The notes under the pieces were generated by a model that had not been told where the DNA came from, did no database searches, and saw only the letters and a list, made by a program, of their open reading frames with translations. Shown piece after piece: positions 3,317 through 35,107 of a DNA stretch of 41,483 nucleotides. Both the position numbers and the translations under genes were made by a program. Origin of the DNA: a virus (lineage: Duplodnaviria; Heunggongvirae; Uroviricota; Caudoviricetes); IMG/VR virus record IMGVR_UViG_2565956725_000003, positions 1 to 41,483 of that record; one strand, written 5' to 3'. Numbering within the stretch: position 1 is the first letter of the stretch; the number at the start of each line of letters is the position of its first letter.

Positions 3317-6073
3317 TTAGCTACTTTCAAGCATTGCAAGACGTGATTCTATTTTTTCGATTCTTCTACGCAAATAAGCTGACTCAAGCCATAAACACTG
3401 GTCAGTACGGATACCCCACCTATTTCCAGCCTTGCAAACCAGAGTTCGCTCTTCTGTTTCGTATTCTTCTTCCATCTCAATTTCGACGCCATCCACAACT
3501 TTAGTGATCATCCTTACCGCCATCACTGGCGCGTATTTATCATCCCATTCATCGTAACAGAGAAGGCCAAATCTGGTTCCATCAATCCCATGCGCGAGGA
3601 AAGTGTCTCTCACTTGTTGTGCTATAACACCAAAATGCCAGCGGGCACCATCTCCCTTTTCCCTGACGGCATCAAGCCAGCGAAAAGCTACAATCCTGAT
3701 ATCTCCCCATGCATCCAGAATTGCATCACCTTCATAACCACGAGACATATACAAGCTGAGCTCACTTGTACTAATCGGTTCACTTTTTTCTCTACCATCT
3801 GATGTGTTTATCGAACCGTTCGCAGAATAAACCTGTGCCCATCTAAATGATGGTGCACCAAGAGATTTGCTGTTATCAATAATTGGTGAAAAATTACCTT
3901 TAATGGCAATATTTCCAGAGTCGCCGAATATATTAATAACTGCAGAGTCATCACCATGGTTTTTTACGCTTAAGTTTCTTGATGAAATATTTATATCTTT
4001 GTTATATCCACTAACATTAATCCATCTTTTACCATCAATGTGATACCCGTAAATATTTCCGTCTGATTGTTCGTCAGGTGACTCTCTAAGAACAATAGCA
4101 TCTGCTCCAGACGACCATTGTATTTTTGTATCTGTAGGCCTCCAGTTCTTTATAATGAACGAACCATCAGTAAACTCCGTTTTTATTTGTCTATTGTCTA
4201 CAAATGCGTCTCTTGGTTTAAACTCACTTGTGTTAACGCTGCTCTGAAGATCAGAAGCAAAAAATCTAAGATTTCCTGTATAACCCTGAGTCTCGGTCTG
4301 GTTATACGCAATCATAATTCCATTTTCAAACTCAGATGATGTTATTTTAACATCACGGCAATCACCAAAAATGCAATTTCCTTTATCAAATGTTGTTTGA
4401 GCTTTGAATTTATCAAACCTTAAATTACGAACAGGGAAACCATCAACCTCTAATGCAAAGGATGCAGGAAGGCCAAAGTATTCTGATGGCTTACCTGATG
4501 TATGATCAAGAGTAGTGGCTACTGTATTCTCAAAAACAGTCCCGCTAAAATTATTACCAATTGACGGAAACCTGATTACACTTATTGTACCTTGTATTTC
4601 AGGAGAAATACCAGATAGTGTGATGTTAGCTCCATCAAATGATGCATCTGAATACGTATATACTGATTCACTGCCAGCAATTTTAAACTGTTTAACTGAA
4701 GTTATTCTCATCGACTTTTTATGTTTAAATGTCACTGAGCTTTCAGTATTACTTACAAGATCAATCTGAGGGCTATTCCTTATCGCGATCCCTGACTGGA
4801 CATAAACGTTATTAAAGTGCGTTTTTTCAGGATTTCCCTTCATTGAAAGGCTCCCGTCATTTTCTGTCAGTAGTAGTCCTTTTACCCTCCAATAGCCGAC
4901 AATCTGTACGTTATCAATAACTGAATCACAGCTATCGTATACATGCAACCCTATATCCCAGTCATCACCCAATGAATAAGAATCAGGGTTATTGTATCCT
5001 TCAATACCATTTTTACTTACCATTATTCTCAGGTTGCGTAACTGTGATGCCCTGTTGATACTAACAGCTACGCTCATGGCTTTTGGTGTAGCAGGAGTAA
5101 CACCTACAGAATCTTCATTTGTAAACTCAGTGAACTTACAAGATATCCCTTCAACAATTTTAACTGGTCTTTCATTAGAGATGTTAAAAAAATATTTGTT
5201 TTTTTCTCCATCACCAGTAAATACAAGATGGGTTCCTTTACTCCAACTTTTTAATAATCTTTCAGGCGCTGGTCTATATGTATCCCAATAATCAATGCCA
5301 TCACCAATTAAAGACACTCCAGGAGGCACATCTATGTTCTTAGAAATCATCCATTTACCTGCAGGTATTCTAACGACACTTGCACCAGAATTTATCGCAT
5401 TAATTAACCATTCAGACGCATCAACTTCAAAATTTAATGCAGCATATCTTTGCTCAAACGGAACAAAATCAAGAGCGTTAACGTTATCCCGCATCTTATC
5501 CTGGAACGTTCGGTATACTGCTCCAGAACCATACTGAATAAACCAACCAAAACCACCAACAACTCCGGCGATTGCAGCATCAACATAATTGCGCATTGAT
5601 CGATTATTTACAGCATCCTGCTCAAGTGATGGATCTGCAAGGTTAGAAATTTTGTTTTGCTTTGCATCGTAATATTTTGCAAGCAAAGATGGTTTCATCA
5701 ATGCACGTCTGAACCATCCAAAACATTGCTGGATCAGCATCGTCAGATAGTCAAAGGCATCTTCATGCACCTCGGGGAAAAATTTTCCCTGATTACGAAG
5801 ATCAGTCTCCTGCACCACATCAAGCACACGATCTATCGTAATTCGCCATCCAGCAGCAAGCGGCGACGGAAGAACAACAGAACCGCCACTATAAGTGCCC
5901 GCCCCTGTTACCGTATAACCGGTATCCAGAACCAATTCTGTTACGTTCCCGTTCAGGTCAGACACCTGAACAACCAGGTCGGATTTTTTGAAAATACGGA
6001 AGGTATACGGAAATGATGTCGTAGCTCCGTTACCTGTGTATTCGTTGTGGTCAACTTCGGTTGAGACCGTCAT
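3317..6073 (-). CDS. tailspike/tail fibre with C-terminal intramolecular chaperone (peptidase S74-like)
   Basis: 918 aa; N-terminus resembles the T7 gp17-type adaptor domain; AT-rich central part; C-terminal roughly 150 aa resembles self-cleaving chaperone domains of endosialidase-type fibres; RBS GGAG. Confidence 0.8.
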   Translation of the reverse strand: MTVSTEVDHNEYTGNGATTSFPYTFRIFKKSDLVVQVSDLNGNVTELVLDTGYTVTGAGTYSGGSVVLPSPLAAGWRITIDRVLDVVQETDLRNQGKFFPEVHEDAFDYLTMLIQQCFGWFRRALMKPSLLAKYYDAKQNKISNLADPSLEQDAVNNRSMRNYVDAAIAGVVGGFGWFIQYGSGAVYRTFQDKMRDNVNALDFVPFEQRYAALNFEVDASEWLINAINSGASVVRIPAGKWMISKNIDVPPGVSLIGDGIDYWDTYRPAPERLLKSWSKGTHLVFTGDGEKNKYFFNISNERPVKIVEGISCKFTEFTNEDSVGVTPATPKAMSVAVSINRASQLRNLRIMVSKNGIEGYNNPDSYSLGDDWDIGLHVYDSCDSVIDNVQIVGYWRVKGLLLTENDGSLSMKGNPEKTHFNNVYVQSGIAIRNSPQIDLVSNTESSVTFKHKKSMRITSVKQFKIAGSESVYTYSDASFDGANITLSGISPEIQGTISVIRFPSIGNNFSGTVFENTVATTLDHTSGKPSEYFGLPASFALEVDGFPVRNLRFDKFKAQTTFDKGNCIFGDCRDVKITSSEFENGIMIAYNQTETQGYTGNLRFFASDLQSSVNTSEFKPRDAFVDNRQIKTEFTDGSFIIKNWRPTDTKIQWSSGADAIVLRESPDEQSDGNIYGYHIDGKRWINVSGYNKDINISSRNLSVKNHGDDSAVINIFGDSGNIAIKGNFSPIIDNSKSLGAPSFRWAQVYSANGSINTSDGREKSEPISTSELSLYMSRGYEGDAILDAWGDIRIVAFRWLDAVREKGDGARWHFGVIAQQVRDTFLAHGIDGTRFGLLCYDEWDDKYAPVMAVRMITKVVDGVEIEMEEEYETEERTLVCKAGNRWGIRTDQCLWLESAYLRRRIEKIESRLAMLESS

Positions 6074-6176
6074 GTTAAATCTCCAGATAGTCGCAGCACC
6101 CGTTGCGCCGCATATCTGGTTATTCTATTACCTGAAAAACCACATATGGATAGAAAGACTGTAAATACGAATAGAT

Positions 6177-6193
6177 ATTACCTTTCGGGTAAT
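6177..6193. promoter_or_regulatory. operator-like 17-bp palindrome ATTACC-N5-GGTAAT (copy 1)
   Basis: ATTACCTTTCGGGTAAT, perfect 6+6 inverted repeat, in the divergent region between the tailspike start and the SOS-box ORF. Confidence 0.6.
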
Positions 6194-6229
6194 TTGCAAA
6201 ACGTGCTGGATAGCAAACAAATTATTTGA

Positions 6230-6249
6230 TACTGTATAAATATACAGTT
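6230..6249 (+). promoter_or_regulatory. LexA (SOS) box inside a sigma70-like promoter
   Basis: TACTGTATAAATATACAGTT matches the CTGT-N8-ACAG consensus; sits between TTGATA (6226-6231) and TATTAC (6249-6254), 20 nt upstream of the ORF at 6269. Confidence 0.8.
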
Positions 6250-6268
6250 ATTACATGGAGAAGATAAG

Positions 6269-6526
6269 ATGCAGCAGTATCACTATCCACTGGAAGACGG
6301 ATTTACCGAAAGGATTCACACGCCGGGAGGCGTCAGGTCACTGGTGGAGGGATCGCACTTGATGAAATTACTCCGGGATCTCGATAAGGATGGATTTAAT
6401 GTCGATGGCCCACTTGCCGAACTGACTGCACTGATTAACTACGTCACCAGCTCACAGATGTCTATGCAGGATCTGCAAACACATCTCGACTATTGTGCCG
6501 AACAATTACGAAAGCAAACCAGATAA
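6269..6526 (+). CDS. small SOS-controlled protein, paralogue of the Bro protein C-terminal domain (candidate antirepressor)
   Basis: 85 aa, RBS GGAG; aligns with the last ~65 aa of the 6840..7532 product (shared IH-P-GV, LM-LL, DG-V-G, AELT, QTH-Y). Confidence 0.7.
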   Translation: MQQYHYPLEDGFTERIHTPGGVRSLVEGSHLMKLLRDLDKDGFNVDGPLAELTALINYVTSSQMSMQDLQTHLDYCAEQLRKQTR

Positions 6527-6556
6527 GGTTTGCAATTACCAAGTGGAGTGCTTATA

Positions 6557-6573
6557 TTTACCTTTGCGGTAAA
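6557..6573. promoter_or_regulatory. operator-like palindrome (copy 2) nested in a larger inverted repeat
   Basis: TTTACCTTTGCGGTAAA, flanked symmetrically by GGAGTGC (6545-6551) and GCACTCC (6582-6588). Confidence 0.55.
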
Positions 6574-6665
6574 TTTACATCGCACTCCTCTTGTGCCATA
6601 GTAATCGGGCACTGGCAAAATCCAGTGCCGGGATTGGTCTCCCGGATTACTACAGAGGCACATAT

Positions 6666-6686
6666 GCCGCATAAGCGGTTTTTTTA
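6666..6686 (+). terminator. weak terminator-like hairpin plus T-tract
   Basis: CCGC-ATAA-GCGG followed by TTTTTTT; short stem. Confidence 0.3.
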
Positions 6687-6839
6687 TGTGTAAAGCGCAC
6701 CTATTCTATGGTGGGCTGTGTGGGGGCACCGAAAGGTGCGCCGGGTTCCTTTGTAGCCGGTAAGACCAACTCTGCACAGTTCACCACCATCTGATTGGTC
6801 TCAGCGGTGGTGATTAACCTAACTACAAAGGTGATCGCC

Positions 6840-7532
6840 ATGAATACCAAACCTTCCATCTTTTCCTTTGAGTCATCCTGCCAGATCCGTATGTTCATGA
6901 TTGACGGAGAACCTTGGTTTGTCACCAAAGATGTGTGCAATGCTTTGAATATTGATGTTACACAAGCGAGAAAACTTGATAAAAAAGGCTGGAACAAAAA
7001 GGGGCTGTATTCAATACAGACCCCTGGTGGAATACAAGAACTATCCATCGTTTCAGAATCAGGTCTCTACATCCTTATTCTGCGTTGCAAAGAGGCAATG
7101 ACAGAGGGAACGAGAGCATTCAGATTTCTTGAATGGGTTACAGGTGAGGTTCTTCCTCAGATCCGCCGCACCGGAAGTTACATTAAAAACTCGCTCCCGC
7201 AGGAAGAACGCATAAAGATGGTTGCCGACCAGGTAGCCAACGCCACGGCGTCAGCAGTAATGCAGGCGATGAAGATAGAGAACAAAACCTACAGTGCCCC
7301 GCTGAAGCCCGGCTACCGCAGCCTGATTCACTCGCCGTCTGGTGTTCTCGGCCTGACGGAGAACTCACTGCTGATGAATCTGCTGAACCAGTTACAGGAA
7401 GACGGGCACGACGTATCGGGCGCGGCGGCGGAACTGACCACCATGTTCTGCTACATCGTCGGTGTGAGTAAATGCCTGCGTGATATCCAGACCCACGCGG
7501 AATACATCAACGACAAGGCAGGGGTCTTCTGA
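6840..7532 (+). CDS. Bro-N domain protein (antirepressor-like)
   Basis: N-terminal Bro-N signature (FSFESSCQIRMFMIDGEPWFVTKDVCNALNI ... GLYILILRC ... FLEWVTGEVLPQIRRTGSY); start at ATG 6840 with RBS AAAGGTGA. Confidence 0.85.
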   Translation: MNTKPSIFSFESSCQIRMFMIDGEPWFVTKDVCNALNIDVTQARKLDKKGWNKKGLYSIQTPGGIQELSIVSESGLYILILRCKEAMTEGTRAFRFLEWVTGEVLPQIRRTGSYIKNSLPQEERIKMVADQVANATASAVMQAMKIENKTYSAPLKPGYRSLIHSPSGVLGLTENSLLMNLLNQLQEDGHDVSGAAAELTTMFCYIVGVSKCLRDIQTHAEYINDKAGVF

Positions 7533-7597: not shown

Positions 7598-7614
7598 ATT
7601 ACCCCAAAGGTAAG
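7598..7614. promoter_or_regulatory. operator-like palindrome (copy 3)
   Basis: ATTACCCCAAAGGTAAG upstream of the two-gene cassette; further GTAAC-N13-GTTACC half-sites at 7626-7650. Confidence 0.55.
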
Positions 7615-7730
7615 AAAGTTGATTTGTAACATTTTAGTTTGTAGTTACCGTGATGGTTTTGCTGCAGAAAGTTAACTAGTCAAAATCACACCGTATGTAA
7701 GTCACGTCTGTTCCCGTATGGGAGGATGAT

Positions 7731-7949
7731 ATGTTTAAATTTGATATGCAACTCAACCAAAACTATGCCTCTTTTTACCATCCAGAAACTGGTAAAGCTG
7801 TTTTCGTTGACTCTTTCGATAATGAAGAATTTGATATCAGAATTGGGACCCTACGCCAAAGTAAGCATGTTGCTACTGTACGTGCATCCAATGATGATGA
7901 ATTAAATCAAAAAATAAGTGAGGCGACCTCCCGTTATCTATGTCTATAA
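7731..7949 (+). CDS. hypothetical protein, first gene of an AT-rich two-gene cassette
   Basis: 72 aa; strong RBS GGGAGGA; no recognisable domain. Confidence 0.6.
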   Translation: MFKFDMQLNQNYASFYHPETGKAVFVDSFDNEEFDIRIGTLRQSKHVATVRASNDDELNQKISEATSRYLCL

Positions 7950-8317
7950 CAGAACAACAACTCATTGATCTTGAGGATGAGATTAACGAGATCTTGCAAG
8001 AAGATGCGGCAAGAATTCACTTTTCATTTCACGCAGCATATGAACGCCTGAACGACGAGAGGAACAAACCGCCAATTACTCTTGCTGAGCTTGAAGATGT
8101 GTTTAAATCGTTTATATCTGCACATCTGCAGACTGTTTTGGATTTTGCTGAAGGTACAACTTTCACCATAAAGTGCAACAAAAGCGCCCTTCATTTTCCT
8201 TGCGCCATTGTACACGAAAGAGAGTTTGGGAAAACGTGGGTTATCCAAAACGTCATTACAGCCATGAGGAAAGTGGGATTCAAGTCTAAAGATTCTATTA
8301 TCCTCGAAGTTAATTAA
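7940..8317 (+). CDS. hypothetical acidic protein, second gene of the cassette
   Basis: 125 aa; start overlaps the upstream stop by 10 nt; followed by a terminator; no recognisable domain. Confidence 0.6.
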   Translation: MSITEQQLIDLEDEINEILQEDAARIHFSFHAAYERLNDERNKPPITLAELEDVFKSFISAHLQTVLDFAEGTTFTIKCNKSALHFPCAIVHEREFGKTWVIQNVITAMRKVGFKSKDSIILEVN

Positions 8318-8339
8318 GCCCGCACTGAGGGCTTTTTTA
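8317..8339 (+). terminator. rho-independent terminator
   Basis: AGCCC-GCACTGA-GGGCT followed by TTTTTT directly after the 125-aa gene stop. Confidence 0.7.
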
Positions 8340-8410
8340 TGGACGAAACAAAAGTCAGTGCTACACTCATTGACGCCACATTGAGGTGGCTTATAGATGG
8401 AAATTTCACA

Positions 8411-8572
8411 ATGAAAAAAGCATTTGCTGCACTGTTCGTTTTGTTGTCTCTGGTAGCTTCAACTCAGGCCTTTGCCGGTCGTTGTCAGCACGACAGCGAC
8501 ACTGCTGCTGACGGCTCCCGCTGCGGTGGGCGTTCTGCGGATTCCCGCCCGGGTGGCGGTGGCATTCGTTAA
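8411..8572 (+). CDS. small secreted Gly-rich two-cysteine peptide
   Basis: 53 aa from internal ATG: signal peptide MKKAFAALFVLLSLVASTQAFA then a 31-aa mature peptide with two Cys. ATG at 8339 rejected (abuts terminator, no RBS). Confidence 0.45.
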   Translation: MKKAFAALFVLLSLVASTQAFAGRCQHDSDTAADGSRCGGRSADSRPGGGGIR

Positions 8573-8594
8573 AAACAAGGCCGCGAAAGCGGCC
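8571..8594 (-). terminator. terminator for the minus-strand late operon, possibly bidirectional
   Basis: GGCCGC-GAAA-GCGGCC hairpin; on the minus strand it is followed by TTGTTTTT. Confidence 0.6.
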
Positions 8595-8603
8595 TGTGAC
8601 ATG

Positions 8604-8984
8604 TCACGCAACGCAATTATTACCGCGCCATGTAACATTTTTAATAATCTTATCAGCACCAAACTCAACGTAAACAGAGCAACTGAAATGGAGTGTATAA
8701 CCGCCATCAGTTGTTGCGTATGTGTTTGAATATATAGTATTACCAATTAGATTAGACGTAGTATTATACGTTGTGGTTTGTGGTACGTTATAACTACCAG
8801 AGCTTGAGTAAACATACACTCTGTTTCCATCTGGAGATGTAAGCTCTCCCTGAGGATACCCCCACTGCTGAACCATTGCGTCTATACTCTGCCCGCGCCA
8901 CGTAAGCATATTTCTTTCAAACTGTGCAGCTGACTGGCATCCAACGAGAAGCATAAATCCAAAAATCAAAAATACTTTTCTCAT
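8604..8984 (-). CDS. prophage lipoprotein (moron, possible superinfection exclusion)
   Basis: 126 aa from ATG 8984 with RBS AGGGG; signal peptide MRKVFLIFGFMLLVGC (lipobox LVGC); Thr/Asn/Tyr-rich mature part. Confidence 0.6.
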   Translation of the reverse strand: MRKVFLIFGFMLLVGCQSAAQFERNMLTWRGQSIDAMVQQWGYPQGELTSPDGNRVYVYSSSGSYNVPQTTTYNTTSNLIGNTIYSNTYATTDGGYTLHFSCSVYVEFGADKIIKNVTWRGNNCVA

Positions 8985-9069
8985 AATTACCCCTATCATG
9001 GAAAAACAGCACCAATCCACAAATTAACTAGTTATTTTATTATTCTTCCGAACAATACAATTCCGAATA

Positions 9070-32102: not shown

Positions 32103-32119
32103 TTTACCTCTGAGGTAAT
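32103..32119. promoter_or_regulatory. operator-like palindrome (copy 6)
   Basis: TTTACCTCTGAGGTAAT overlapping the RBS/start of the 31756..32100 gene. Confidence 0.5.
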
Positions 32120-34368: not shown

Positions 34369-34434
34369 AGCTATTGCCTGATATTTATTTCAGATAATAA
34401 ATATTCACCCATAAGGTAACAAAAATCAAGGATA

Positions 34435-34451
34435 GTTACCTGTGGGGTGCA
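34435..34451. promoter_or_regulatory. operator-like site, imperfect (OR2-like)
   Basis: GTTACCTGTGGGGTGCA; left half conserved, right half GGTGC; tandem with copy 8. Confidence 0.45.
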
Positions 34452-34468
34452 TTTACCTGTTGGGTAAT
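34452..34468. promoter_or_regulatory. operator-like palindrome (copy 8, OR-like)
   Basis: TTTACCTGTTGGGTAAT in the 154-bp region between the divergent cro-like and repressor genes; GGTAAC half-site at 34415-34420. Confidence 0.65.
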
Positions 34469-34522: not shown

Positions 34523-35107
34523 ATGAAAAGTATCCAGGACGTCCGCAGGCAAAATCTCAACGACTTGATCGACCGTGAATTCAATGGTGTTCAGACGCGG
34601 ATGGCAGAAAAACTTGGAACTCAGGCAAATCTGGTAAACCGCTGGGCTCTTGGCAAGAAGGTTATCGGCGACCAGGTTGCACGAAAAATTGAAGCTGCCG
34701 CCAATAAACCCCGTAACTGGCTTGATATTGATCGTTCGCTTTCTCAGGAGGGTTTTCAGCCTGTCGGCCCGAGCGATATAGGTCAGCTGGCGGCTCACAA
34801 CCTGGAACGCTGGATGAGCGAAAGCCGCGACCTTTCAACACAGGGAAAACTTCACCGCGCATCCGGCGTCGCCCAGGTGACAATCAGCCGCCTGTTAAAC
34901 AATGAGGTCAGCGTTTCCATTTCCACCCTGGAGAATGTTGCATCCGCATTCGGGCGTCACGGATATGAACTACTAATTCACCCGCACGACCCTGCGACTA
35001 TCAACTATGACCGCTCGCGCTACGCATTGTTACCCGAAGCCGAGAAAGCAAAGATCGAAAGTTACATTGAATTTGTCATCAACCAGAACGAAAAAAACAA
35101 ACAATAA
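34523..35107 (+). CDS. prophage repressor, dual HTH, no autocleavage domain
   Basis: 194 aa; two HTH-like segments (residues about 10-60 and 95-150); no S24 peptidase motifs; divergent from the cro-like gene; followed by a strong terminator. Confidence 0.7.
   Translation: MKSIQDVRRQNLNDLIDREFNGVQTRMAEKLGTQANLVNRWALGKKVIGDQVARKIEAAANKPRNWLDIDRSLSQEGFQPVGPSDIGQLAAHNLERWMSESRDLSTQGKLHRASGVAQVTISRLLNNEVSVSISTLENVASAFGRHGYELLIHPHDPATINYDRSRYALLPEAEKAKIESYIEFVINQNEKNKQ

Follow-up and report, generated by a model that had tools for sequence, protein, structure and literature searches.

In Gifsy-1 and Gifsy-3 (GfoA, GfhA), Fels-2, 186 (Tum), and N15 (AntC), a small protein repressed by LexA inactivates a non-cleavable repressor (PMC7067206, PMC7380047). 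One passage of a review cites Kim & Ryu 2013 among antirepressors that are synthesized after LexA self-cleavage and inhibit the lytic repressor (PMC7380047), and, according to a statement in PMC9638917, the Ant tetramer of Salmonella phage SPC32H disassembles the Rep tetramer. Another described arrangement is the isrK-orf45-anrP region of Gifsy-1 (Hershko-Shalev et al. 2016, PMC4825925), in which IsrK has its own terminator and the read-through transcript is the mRNA of an antirepressor-like protein. No translation of this mRNA takes place before the short form of IsrK acts in trans. Downstream, a processed RNA (STnc1160) shows complementarity to IsrK (PMC4825925).

We analyzed a 41,483-nucleotide stretch of viral DNA (IMG/VR record IMGVR_UViG_2565956725_000003; "the window"), which represents a podophage of the epsilon15/phiV10 type (Uetakevirus) and is an E. 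coli prophage. The window is syntenic with SPC32H, epsilon15, and phiV10: a gp17-like gene is followed by ant on the opposite strand and then by the tailspike gene, which puts the internal/ejection-protein genes on one side of ant and the tailspike gene on the other. The tailspike gene (3317 to 6073, minus strand) is divergent from ant, and a 195-bp spacer lies between them. We conclude, with high confidence, that this locus is the promoter-operator and antirepressor gene of an SPC32H-type antirepression switch, where the binding of LexA, inducibility by the SOS response, and the interaction of Ant with Rep are carried over from the orthologue and the literature. The ant region comprises the following features.

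6177 to 6193, no strand: Rep-operator-like palindrome ATTACCTTTCGGGTAAT, 91 nt 5′ of the ant ATG, in the tailspike/ant spacer
6226 to 6231, plus strand: −35-like hexamer TTGATA, as assigned in a preliminary description of this DNA; TTG-TA is conserved in an alignment of 11 phages
6230 to 6249, no strand: LexA (SOS) box TACTGTATAAATATACAGTT, 27.1 bits, unique in the window
6249 to 6254, plus strand: −10-like hexamer TATTAC, from the same description; weak, without the final T
6257 to 6260, plus strand: Shine-Dalgarno sequence GGAG, 8 nt 5′ of the ATG, conserved in the 11-phage alignment
6269 to 6526, plus strand: ant, predicted to encode an 85-aa antirepressor, orthologue of SPC32H Ant (epsilon15 gp19, phiV10p24)

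The sequence TACTGTATAAATATACAGTT differs from the 20-bp LexA consensus TACTGTATATATATACAGTA at two positions and is the only match with three or fewer mismatches in the window, while 0 of 100 shuffles gave such a match. It shows the CTGT-N8-ACAG pattern, the AT-rich center, and the score in the range of known boxes that serve as criteria for an SOS box. On a symmetrized weight matrix trained on a set of 21 E. coli SOS boxes, the score is above that of every training site (11.9 to 26.5 bits); the runner-up in the rest of the window has 13.7 bits, and none of 200 shuffles exceeded 17.5 bits. The preliminary description had reported a near-consensus LexA box at this place and proposed weight-matrix scoring as a check, and both the box and its strength hold up. 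It had also put the box 20 nt upstream of an 85-aa ORF; the ORF is present, but the gap from the box end to the ATG is 19 nt. Further CTGT-N8-ACAG occurrences at 5052, 21260, 25802, and 30445 were rejected as LexA boxes (GC-rich centers, at most 11.4 bits, chance level).

The two hexamers that flank the box, TTGATA and TATTAC, had been read as the promoter. The letters are where that reading put them, but the pair is only plausible, and the promoter scan does not list it because TATTAC is missing its final T. A −10 element at 6249 to 6254 would set the transcription start at about 6261, 3′ of GGAG, and this makes the hexamer assignment uncertain. Four other −35/−10 pairs were considered, each overlapping or abutting the box (for example, the invariant TGGATA at 6207 to 6212, separated by 17 nt from TACTGT at 6230 to 6235). 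Such pairs further upstream, which overlap the box too, are equally possible.

Across 11 aligned phages (ant upstream spacer; Ant identity down to 58%), both arms of the box are constant and its center varies, with CTGT and ACAG unchanged in relatives from E. coli, Salmonella, Citrobacter, and Enterobacter. The box aligns column for column with that of SPC32H, and in phage ZX5, Ant and the box are both identical to those of the window. In relatives belonging to Escherichia, Salmonella, Citrobacter, Enterobacter, and Klebsiella, the spacing between box and ant is fixed; counted to the ATG, it is 19 to 22 nt in 92 of the 96 loci. A scan of genome contigs contributed 6 related loci; the 80 loci from a scan of viral contigs are near-identical and are informative on population variation, not on deep diversity. 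The loci include three broken boxes and one very weak Klebsiella-type box (locus L016, 13.1 bits). Two of the three broken boxes were discarded as true losses because they are contig ends, one with a Nextera adapter; in locus L021, the junction within the box is genuine. In the aligned ant upstream spacer, SPC32N differs from SPC32H at one base, which turns ACAG of the box into AAAG. The 2013 work of Kim & Ryu is said to have found the SPC32H and SPC32N genomes two nucleotides apart, with the box change making Ant constitutive. Taken together, the sequence comparisons support a strong, conserved LexA site directly 5′ of ant, for which LexA binding in this phage is expected from the orthologue and the literature.

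The antirepressor assignment of the 85-aa ORF is supported by its match to SPC32H Ant, both in PDB 5D50 chain E (phmmer, E = 4e−47, residues 2 to 84 aligned) and in the ant gene of KC911856 (tblastn, 88% identity). PDB 5D50 is SPC32H Ant crystallized in complex with SPC32H Rep, and a corresponding Ant-Rep interaction would be predicted for the window phage from its orthologue and the literature. The only PHROG matches of Ant are phrog_450, phrog_15539, and phrog_1760 (C-terminus). No Pfam or NCBIfam model covering Ant was found, and a DUF724 match was dismissed as noise (17.6 bits against a cut-off of 38.4). The partner gene and its operators lie elsewhere in the window.

34405 to 34467, no strand: operator cluster TCACCCATAAGGTAA, TTACCTGTGGGGTGC, TTACCTGTTGGGTAA in the intergenic region between rep and the leftward gene
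34523 to 35107, plus strand: rep, 194-aa prophage repressor, SPC32H Rep homologue with two HTH domains and no S24 domain

Rep matches PDB 5D50 chain A over its full length (residues 1 to 190; E = 4e−42, 42% identity), and its C-terminal half (residues 89 to 190) matches PDB 5D4Z. In Pfam, Rep has HTH_3 and a weak YdaS-like match only, and tblastn searches of the window with LexA and lambda CI for an S24-like autocleavage domain returned nothing at E < 0.6, in agreement with the earlier claim of a repressor without such a domain. The motif TTACC-N5-GGTAA (at most one mismatch) occurs at 13 sites in the window, where 0.73 are expected. The palindrome at 6177 to 6193 is kept in all 11 aligned relatives; this 17-mer occupies the same position in the epsilon15 record (AY150271.2), where it is annotated as "protein_bind: repressor, lysogeny." Since the divergence from SPC32H, Rep has kept 42% identity and Ant 88%, and we assume that the Ant of the window still recognizes its Rep.

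We propose that, in the lysogen, host LexA would bind at 6230 to 6249, over the core ant promoter, and silence ant, and Rep, which has no RecA-stimulated autocleavage domain, would shut the lytic promoters through ATTACC-N5-GGTAAT operators. Upon DNA damage, active RecA would lead to LexA self-cleavage and ant transcription, and the 85-aa Ant would bind Rep and strip it from the DNA, opening the lytic cycle. In the SPC32H structure, one Ant tetramer reportedly binds two Rep dimers, breaking up the DNA-binding Rep tetramer. The box, the S24-less Rep, and the orthology to the crystallized Ant-Rep pair all favor LexA-derepressed antirepression instead of repressor cleavage, as had been suggested before. 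Gifsy, Fels-2, and 186 Tum, which had been named as precedents, are functional analogues, but none is as close a precedent as SPC32H Ant. Treatment of ZX5 with mitomycin C raised the free-phage titer from 1e7 to 1e9 PFU/mL (PMC9782041); because there is only one LexA box in the window, this response is most simply explained via Pant.

Directly 3′ of ant, the window carries a cassette with a second antirepressor gene.

6557 to 6573, no strand: TTTACCTTTGCGGTAAA, another Rep-operator-like palindrome, directly adjoining the −35 element of the IsrK promoter
6574 to 6602, plus strand: promoter-like TTTACA-17-CATAGT, TG-extended (promoter scan)
6609 to 6685, plus strand: IsrK-like RNA with the C4 targets b1 (UUGGUC) and a1 (CUACAGAGG); Rfam RF01394, 74.7 bits (gathering score 50)
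6704 to 6791, plus strand: C4 antisense RNA (Rfam RF01695, 78.6 bits; gathering score 45), with CCUUUGUAG as loop a′ and GACCAA as loop b′
6796 to 6832, plus strand: C4 targets b2 (TTGGTC, 6796 to 6801) and a2 (CTACAAAGG, 6824 to 6832), from sequence and covariation
6840 to 7532, plus strand: second putative antirepressor, with a Bro-N domain (residues 16 to 106) and a C-terminal Ant-like domain (residues ~149 to 222), from Pfam and PHROG

Transcription from the IsrK promoter is predicted to start at 6609, where the IsrK model begins, and TTGTGCCATAGT within this promoter is invariant in an alignment of relatives (A2). Before IsrK, TTACC-N5-GGTAA is kept in 59 distinct related sequences with a variable center, one of them having AGTAA for GGTAA. 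The IsrK-like RNA ends in an intrinsic terminator (6666 to 6686); for the a1b1 family RF03163, the score of 39.9 bits is below the gathering threshold (46.7). The cassette contains two copies each of the complementary hexamer and nonamer, and the a′/b′ loops covary three ways with a1/b1 and a2/b2 (five a-types and three b-types in 59 distinct sequences). The a2 target overlaps the Shine-Dalgarno sequence of the Bro-N gene. An icd-like leader ORF starting on the plus strand at 6792 to 6839 and leading into the Bro-N gene is absent from the ORF listing, which we attribute to a2 covering the gene's own Shine-Dalgarno sequence. The Bro-N protein matches Pfam Bro-N (1.7e−13), phrog_130 "anti-repressor Ant" (4e−51), and, on residues 147 to 228, phrog_450. 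Its similarity to Ant (42% identity, E = 6e−16) identifies the C-terminal domain, at the sequence level, as a paralogue of Ant. It is also 80% identical to ORF4 of ZX5, with a nearly identical C-terminal half, and overexpression of ORF4 lowered lysogeny, with prophage counts falling from 1e9 to 1e6 (PMC9782041).

Between the ant stop (6526) and the IsrK terminator (6666 to 6686), we found no terminator, and thus the LexA-derepressed ant mRNA should bear IsrK a1/b1 as its 3′ end. This suggests a possible, though not probable, arrangement in which the SOS-controlled ant of this E. coli lineage is linked serially to a second antirepressor under RNA control. The 3′ end of the ant mRNA could titrate C4 and unlock translation of the Bro-N/Ant-domain protein, a feed-forward step that would commit the prophage to induction, and the Rep-type palindromes before both units could add positive feedback after Rep removal. 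If true, the a/b loop types (5 × 3) would be an RNA-level hetero-immunity barcode over a shared, highly conserved protein antirepressor.

A second antirepressor directly 3′ of ant also means that Ant is not necessarily the sole or dominant inducer, and it weakens deletion of the ant ORF as a test of induction. The small Ant could be auxiliary, with the main trigger being the Bro-N/Ant-domain protein freed from C4 by an IsrK-like RNA, as for Gifsy-1 AnrP; such a prophage would respond to signals besides, or other than, SOS. We regard this as unlikely, even though IsrK and C4 far exceed their Rfam gathering scores, a2 lies over the Bro-N Shine-Dalgarno sequence, three-way covariation is seen in the a and b loops, the effect of ZX5 ORF4 on prophage counts points in the same direction, and IsrK of Gifsy-1 turns on AnrP translation and prophage induction (PMC4825925). 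SPC32H, epsilon15, BUCT554, and BUCT711 lack the cassette altogether, yet have ant and the LexA box, and the persistence of ant and box in cassette-less SPC32H implies that Ant alone is sufficient in a characterized relative. The single LexA box in the window, through which the ZX5 response is most simply read, argues the same way. The Bro-N and LexA-Ant routes are, moreover, not mutually exclusive.

Other readings of the box and the island have far less in their favor. The box does lie inside the spacer common to the tailspike gene and ant, but it is very improbable that it governs the divergent tailspike gene or the whole island and not ant: it is 19 nt from the ant ATG versus 157 nt from the tailspike ATG, the leftward gene has its own conserved −10-like element (TAGAAT, 6122 to 6127) about 100 bp away, and the box stays with ant while the tailspike modules vary among relatives. 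Still harder to accept is the view that the palindrome arose by chance as an AT-rich inverted repeat, or that it belongs to the promoter and has no LexA function. The AT-rich center resembles −10 elements too, but neither the score nor the consensus match was reached in shuffled sequences, the relatives show the pattern of a LexA site (invariant arms, free center, fixed spacing), and the SPC32H/SPC32N difference falls in the ACAG arm. Least credible of all, to the point of being negligible, is an immI region of the P22 type, with ant under Mnt/Arc repressors and a sar antisense RNA. The preliminary description had likened the island to that of P22, and the position among late genes near the tailspike is indeed comparable; the Bro-N protein also has a weak P22_AR_N match (17.7 bits, below the cut-off of 30.7). 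However, the genome is of the epsilon15/phiV10 type and not P22-like, an Rfam scan at E ≤ 1 gave C4, isrK, and a1b1 only and no sar, and no Arc/Mnt domain is present among the island ORFs. The likeness is to the C4-RNA type of P1/P7 and not to arc/mnt/sar.

The SOS switch described here is of a type already known, having been characterized and crystallized in the close relative SPC32H; the switch of the window is thus ordinary, and its weight as a discovery is limited, although the mechanism deduced from sequence alone agrees with SPC32H genetics and structure. An Ant orthologue is present in 542 of 5,426 complete E. coli genomes (~10%) and is annotated as "hypothetical protein" almost everywhere. 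Given this annotation and the lack of a Pfam or NCBIfam model, annotation pipelines miss an SOS-induction gene, one that belongs to a common family of O-antigen-modifying prophages. The arrangement of ant in tandem with an IsrK/C4-controlled Ant-domain antirepressor is the sole part that may be worth more work.

Among known systems, P22 immI (ant, arc, mnt, sar) shares with the window an antirepressor island among late genes near the tailspike, but it belongs to another phage lineage; the island of the window shows none of Arc, Mnt, and sar, and LexA does not control ant in P22 (PMC7380047). The antirepressors of Gifsy, Fels-2, 186, and N15 share the logic of the switch; they come from siphoviruses, myoviruses, and a linear plasmid prophage, and no sequence relationship to them showed up in the family matches of Ant, which are to Uetakevirus-type PHROGs only. 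The cassette resembles P1/P7 immI (c4 - icd - ant) in the a′/b′ loops of C4, the upstream a1/b1 and downstream a2/b2 targets, the masking of the antirepressor ribosome-binding site by a2, and a loop/target covariation that creates different specificities. It differs in having no icd-like leader ORF, an SPC32H-Ant-like C-terminal domain, and a tandem position behind the LexA-controlled ant. With Gifsy-1, the cassette has in common an IsrK-family RNA with its own terminator before an antirepressor-like gene; unlike Gifsy-1, it has no orf45 coupling ORF, and its likely target is the phage's own Rep and not the AntQ pathway. The closest counterpart is the Ant/Rep switch (Kim & Ryu 2013, J Virol 87:11775; Kim et al. 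2016, PNAS 113:E2480; PDB 5D50, 5D4Z) of SPC32H, a phage of the same genus with an orthologous Ant and a Rep homologous over its full length, in which ant also lies between a gp17-like gene and the tailspike, the box is equally far from the ATG, and ATTACC-N5-GGTAAT is found upstream. The host of the window, in contrast, is E. coli, and its Rep has diverged far more than its Ant. In SPC32H and epsilon15, the genes directly after ant are convergent to it (epsilon15 also has an annotated terminator), whereas in the window ant is followed by the IsrK/C4/Bro-N cassette.

The promoter region and coding sequence of the antirepressor gene ant comprise the following features:
6226-6231, plus strand: -35-like TTGATA, read in the sequence, as chosen in the preliminary description
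6230-6249, palindrome: LexA box TACTGTATAAATATACAGTT, read in the sequence
6249-6254, plus strand: -10-like TATTAC, without the final T, as chosen in the preliminary description
6257-6260, plus strand: Shine-Dalgarno GGAG, read in the sequence
6269-6526, plus strand: small ORF (ant), ATG at 6269, 85 aa

The near-consensus LexA box claimed in the preliminary description is borne out, as is the 85-aa ORF downstream of it. The 20-mer differs from the LexA consensus TACTGTATATATATACAGTA at two positions and is the only match with three or fewer mismatches in the 41.5-kb window (same search, 0 of 100 shuffled windows with any match). With 21 E. coli SOS boxes as the training set of a symmetrised weight matrix, the box reaches 27.1 bits, which exceeds all training sites (11.9 to 26.5 bits), the second-best site in the window (13.7 bits), and the highest score in 200 shuffles (17.5 bits). 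Four further CTGT-N8-ACAG matches were dismissed as LexA boxes, having GC-rich centres and chance-level scores, and therefore the window contains exactly one credible LexA box.

The hexamers said to flank this box, TTGATA and TATTAC, are both present and, from their sequence, plausible as candidate ant promoter elements. As a promoter, the pair fares less well: a -10 at 6249-6254 would put the transcription start at about 6261, 3′ of the Shine-Dalgarno, and a promoter scan of the window did not report the TATTAC-based pair because its final T is missing. Other candidate pairs further upstream, among them an invariant TGGATA (6207-6212) and TACTGT (6230-6235) separated by 17 nt, would yield a normal leader. 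Since every candidate pair overlaps or abuts the LexA box, the predicted occlusion of the ant promoter by LexA holds either way.

A PDB sequence search with the small ORF returned one match, chain E of 5D50 ("Anti-repressor protein"; E = 4e-47, residues 2-84), and in tblastn the ORF shows 88% identity to the annotated ant gene of Salmonella phages SPC32H and SPC32N. By sequence, it is the orthologue of the antirepressor crystallised with its bound repressor. The cognate repressor gene of the window is:
34523-35107, plus strand: rep, 194 aa, in the early region beside a palindrome cluster and facing a divergent 76-aa gene

Rep matches chain A of 5D50 ("Repressor"; E = 4e-42) over its full length, and its C-terminal half also matches 5D4Z. 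Pfam matches in Rep are limited to HTH_3 and a weak YdaS-like HTH, and tblastn with LexA and lambda CI queries detected nothing S24-like across the window; the premise of a repressor without an autocleavage domain is therefore correct. Rep is only 42% identical to its SPC32H counterpart, as against 88% for Ant. The far greater conservation of Ant than of its target suggests either that a Rep surface is conserved or that Ant cross-reacts broadly among related prophages. In its account of the SPC32H structure work, a later paper (PMC9638917) describes Rep as binding DNA in tetrameric form and Ant, itself a tetramer, as binding two dimers of Rep and splitting the Rep tetramer. A review (PMC7380047) places Kim & Ryu 2013 among cases in which LexA self-cleavage leads to antirepressor synthesis and inhibition of the lytic repressor.

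The spacer between tailspike and ant was compared in an alignment of 11 phages (Escherichia, Salmonella, Enterobacter, and Klebsiella; Ant as little as 58% identical). The CTGT and ACAG arms and the distance to the ATG are conserved and the box centre is variable; in the Klebsiella group, the left arm is ATGT. The spacers of SPC32H and SPC32N differ by a single base, which changes the right arm from ACAG to AAAG in SPC32N. Kim and Ryu are said to have reported in 2013 that the two genomes are two nucleotides apart, and the SPC32N box change reportedly makes Ant constitutive, with lysogeny not maintained. Across 96 related loci drawn from GenBank phages, GTDB genomes, and IMG/VR, a box of at least 18 bits lies 19 to 22 nt from the ATG in 92. 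Two of the four exceptions are contig ends, one bearing a Nextera adapter, and a third locus (L016) has a weak Klebsiella-type box (13.1 bits). The fourth (L021; IMGVR_UViG_2563366870_000004, about 2470-2500) has a real junction within the LexA box, and therefore ant there would escape LexA control. At this locus, the left box half, the Rep palindrome, and all other upstream sequence are swapped for unrelated sequence ending in a hairpin.

The preliminary description had likened the island to the P22 ant/immI region. The genome is instead an epsilon15/phiV10-type podophage (genus Uetakevirus), and its immI flavour is P1-like. The region is 92-98% identical to phiV10, TL-2011b, vB_EcoP_ZX5, EC.W1-9, and others, with Salmonella epsilon15-type phages a more distant match. 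The counterparts of the small ORF are phiV10p24 and epsilon15 gp19, each annotated hypothetical; the divergent 918-aa gene encodes a tailspike with an endosialidase-chaperone C-terminus, and the 824-aa gene right of the island corresponds to phiV10p20 and epsilon15 gp17. The tailspike-ant spacer also holds an invariant block, ATTCTATTACC...AAACC.TATATG.AT (6074-6140, minus strand), with a -10-like TAGAAT and a poor -35 on that strand; this may be a tailspike promoter that depends on an activator. The stretch separating the island from the 824-aa gene (8339-9020) holds two small accessory ORFs without a Pfam match, one of 77 aa on the plus strand with a signal-peptide-like N-terminus and one on the minus strand with a lipoprotein-like start (MRKVFLIFGFMLLVGC...).

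Most transcription units of the window are preceded by a TTACC-N5-GGTAA palindrome, of which there are 13 sites with at most one mismatch (0.73 expected), including:
6178: upstream of ant, 91 nt from it
6558-6572: just upstream of the IsrK promoter, abutting its -35
7599: before two unknown genes
25273: before the portal gene block
28438: before the terminase gene block
32104 and 32166: second palindrome pair
34405 and 34453: rep intergenic region
35165 and 35227: pair just 3′ of rep, flanking a TTGACA promoter

In the epsilon15 GenBank record, the same 17-mer bears the label "repressor, lysogeny" at corresponding positions, one of them in the gp19-tailspike spacer, and thus Rep control of the ant island, by repression or activation, is likely. 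At both ant and IsrK, the palindrome lies upstream of the -35 region, not over the core promoter. The pairs at 32104/32166 and 35165/35227 are each exactly 62 bp apart centre to centre, the spacing of annotated epsilon15 repressor sites 32554/32616, and may represent a Rep tetramer bound to two operators. The third palindrome of the island, at 7599-7613, is followed on the plus strand by two ORFs that overlap (72 and 125 aa; phrog_14630 and phrog_14518, of unknown function and without a Pfam match), and 7599-8317 may form a further Rep-controlled unit of the island.

Directly 3′ of ant lies a second antirepressor cassette:
6574-6602: promoter-like TTTACA-17-CATAGT, predicted start exactly at IsrK position 1
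6596-6648: a1/b1 target family (Rfam 39.9 bits, under the gathering score of 46.7)
6609-6685: IsrK-family RNA (Rfam 74.7 bits, gathering 50)
6704-6791: C4 antisense RNA (Rfam 78.6 bits, gathering 45)
6840-7532: Bro-N gene (Bro-N domain and C-terminal Ant-like domain)

Loop a′ of the C4 RNA (CCUUUGUAG) has two complementary targets, a1 in IsrK (CUACAGAGG) and a2 (CTACAAAGG, 6824-6832), the latter overlapping the Shine-Dalgarno of the Bro-N gene; loop b′ (GACCAA) likewise has two, one TTGGTC within IsrK and another at 6796-6801. Among 59 distinct related sequences, with five a-types and three b-types, a′, a1, and a2 change together, as do b′, b1, and b2; on comparative grounds, this argues strongly that both RNA-RNA interactions are functional. 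Across related loci L001-L098 (aligned to 6560-6840), at least five a-types and three b-types occur in mixed combinations while Ant is at least 99% identical; by sequence, this looks like an RNA-level hetero-immunity barcode, as between P1 and P7.

The C-terminal ~80 aa of the Bro-N protein are an Ant paralogue (42% identity, E = 6e-16) and share the residues that do not vary within the Ant family. ORF4 of phage ZX5, a homologue of the Bro-N protein, has 80% overall identity to it and an almost identical C-terminal half, and ORF4 overexpression cut lysogens from 1e9 to 1e6 (PMC9782041). Phages phiV10, EC.W1-9, and Tyrion and some Klebsiella phages carry the cassette, and SPC32H, epsilon15, BUCT554, and BUCT711 lack it; 67 of the 96 loci carry ant with the full cassette and 12 carry ant alone. 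An insertion of 1.1-1.3 kb lies between ant and the IsrK unit in EC.W1-9, Kp4865-1, and some IMG/VR contigs.

In a lysogen, we propose, LexA would keep ant off, Rep would keep the lytic promoters off, and the C4 RNA would prevent translation of the Bro-N antirepressor. Upon DNA damage, LexA would be removed, Ant made, and Rep stripped from its operators. This is the most likely course of induction, judging from the orthologous SPC32H system and from ZX5, which is inducible by mitomycin C (PMC9782041) and whose Ant and LexA box are identical to the window's. From the stop codon of ant to the terminator of IsrK (6527-6686), no other intrinsic terminator was found, and therefore SOS-induced ant mRNA should end with IsrK a1/b1. 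That such transcripts could titrate C4 and release the second antirepressor is a speculative and rather unlikely further step.

Orthology of the small ORF to SPC32H Ant, the HTH-only Rep, and the conserved box support LexA-derepressed antirepression, with SPC32H, not Gifsy or 186, as its precedent. The LexA-controlled ant switch is already known, because the same genes, box, and position have been characterised genetically and structurally in this phage of the same genus. Two points remain of note. One is that ant goes unannotated across hundreds of E. coli genomes: the ant-IsrK-C4 region is carried by 542 of 5,426 complete E. coli RefSeq genomes, the orthologue is almost always named "hypothetical protein" in the protein database, and neither Pfam nor NCBIfam has a model for Ant, although a crystal structure exists. 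The other is the tandem coupling of ant to an RNA-controlled paralogous antirepressor. The RNA part of the cassette resembles P1/P7 immI, whose icd leader ORF is missing here, and the isrK-orf45-anrP locus of Gifsy-1, where short IsrK activates the translation of an antirepressor-like protein and favours induction (PMC4825925); the same triad of IsrK, C4, and Bro-N has been noted in APSE phages (PMC7313666).
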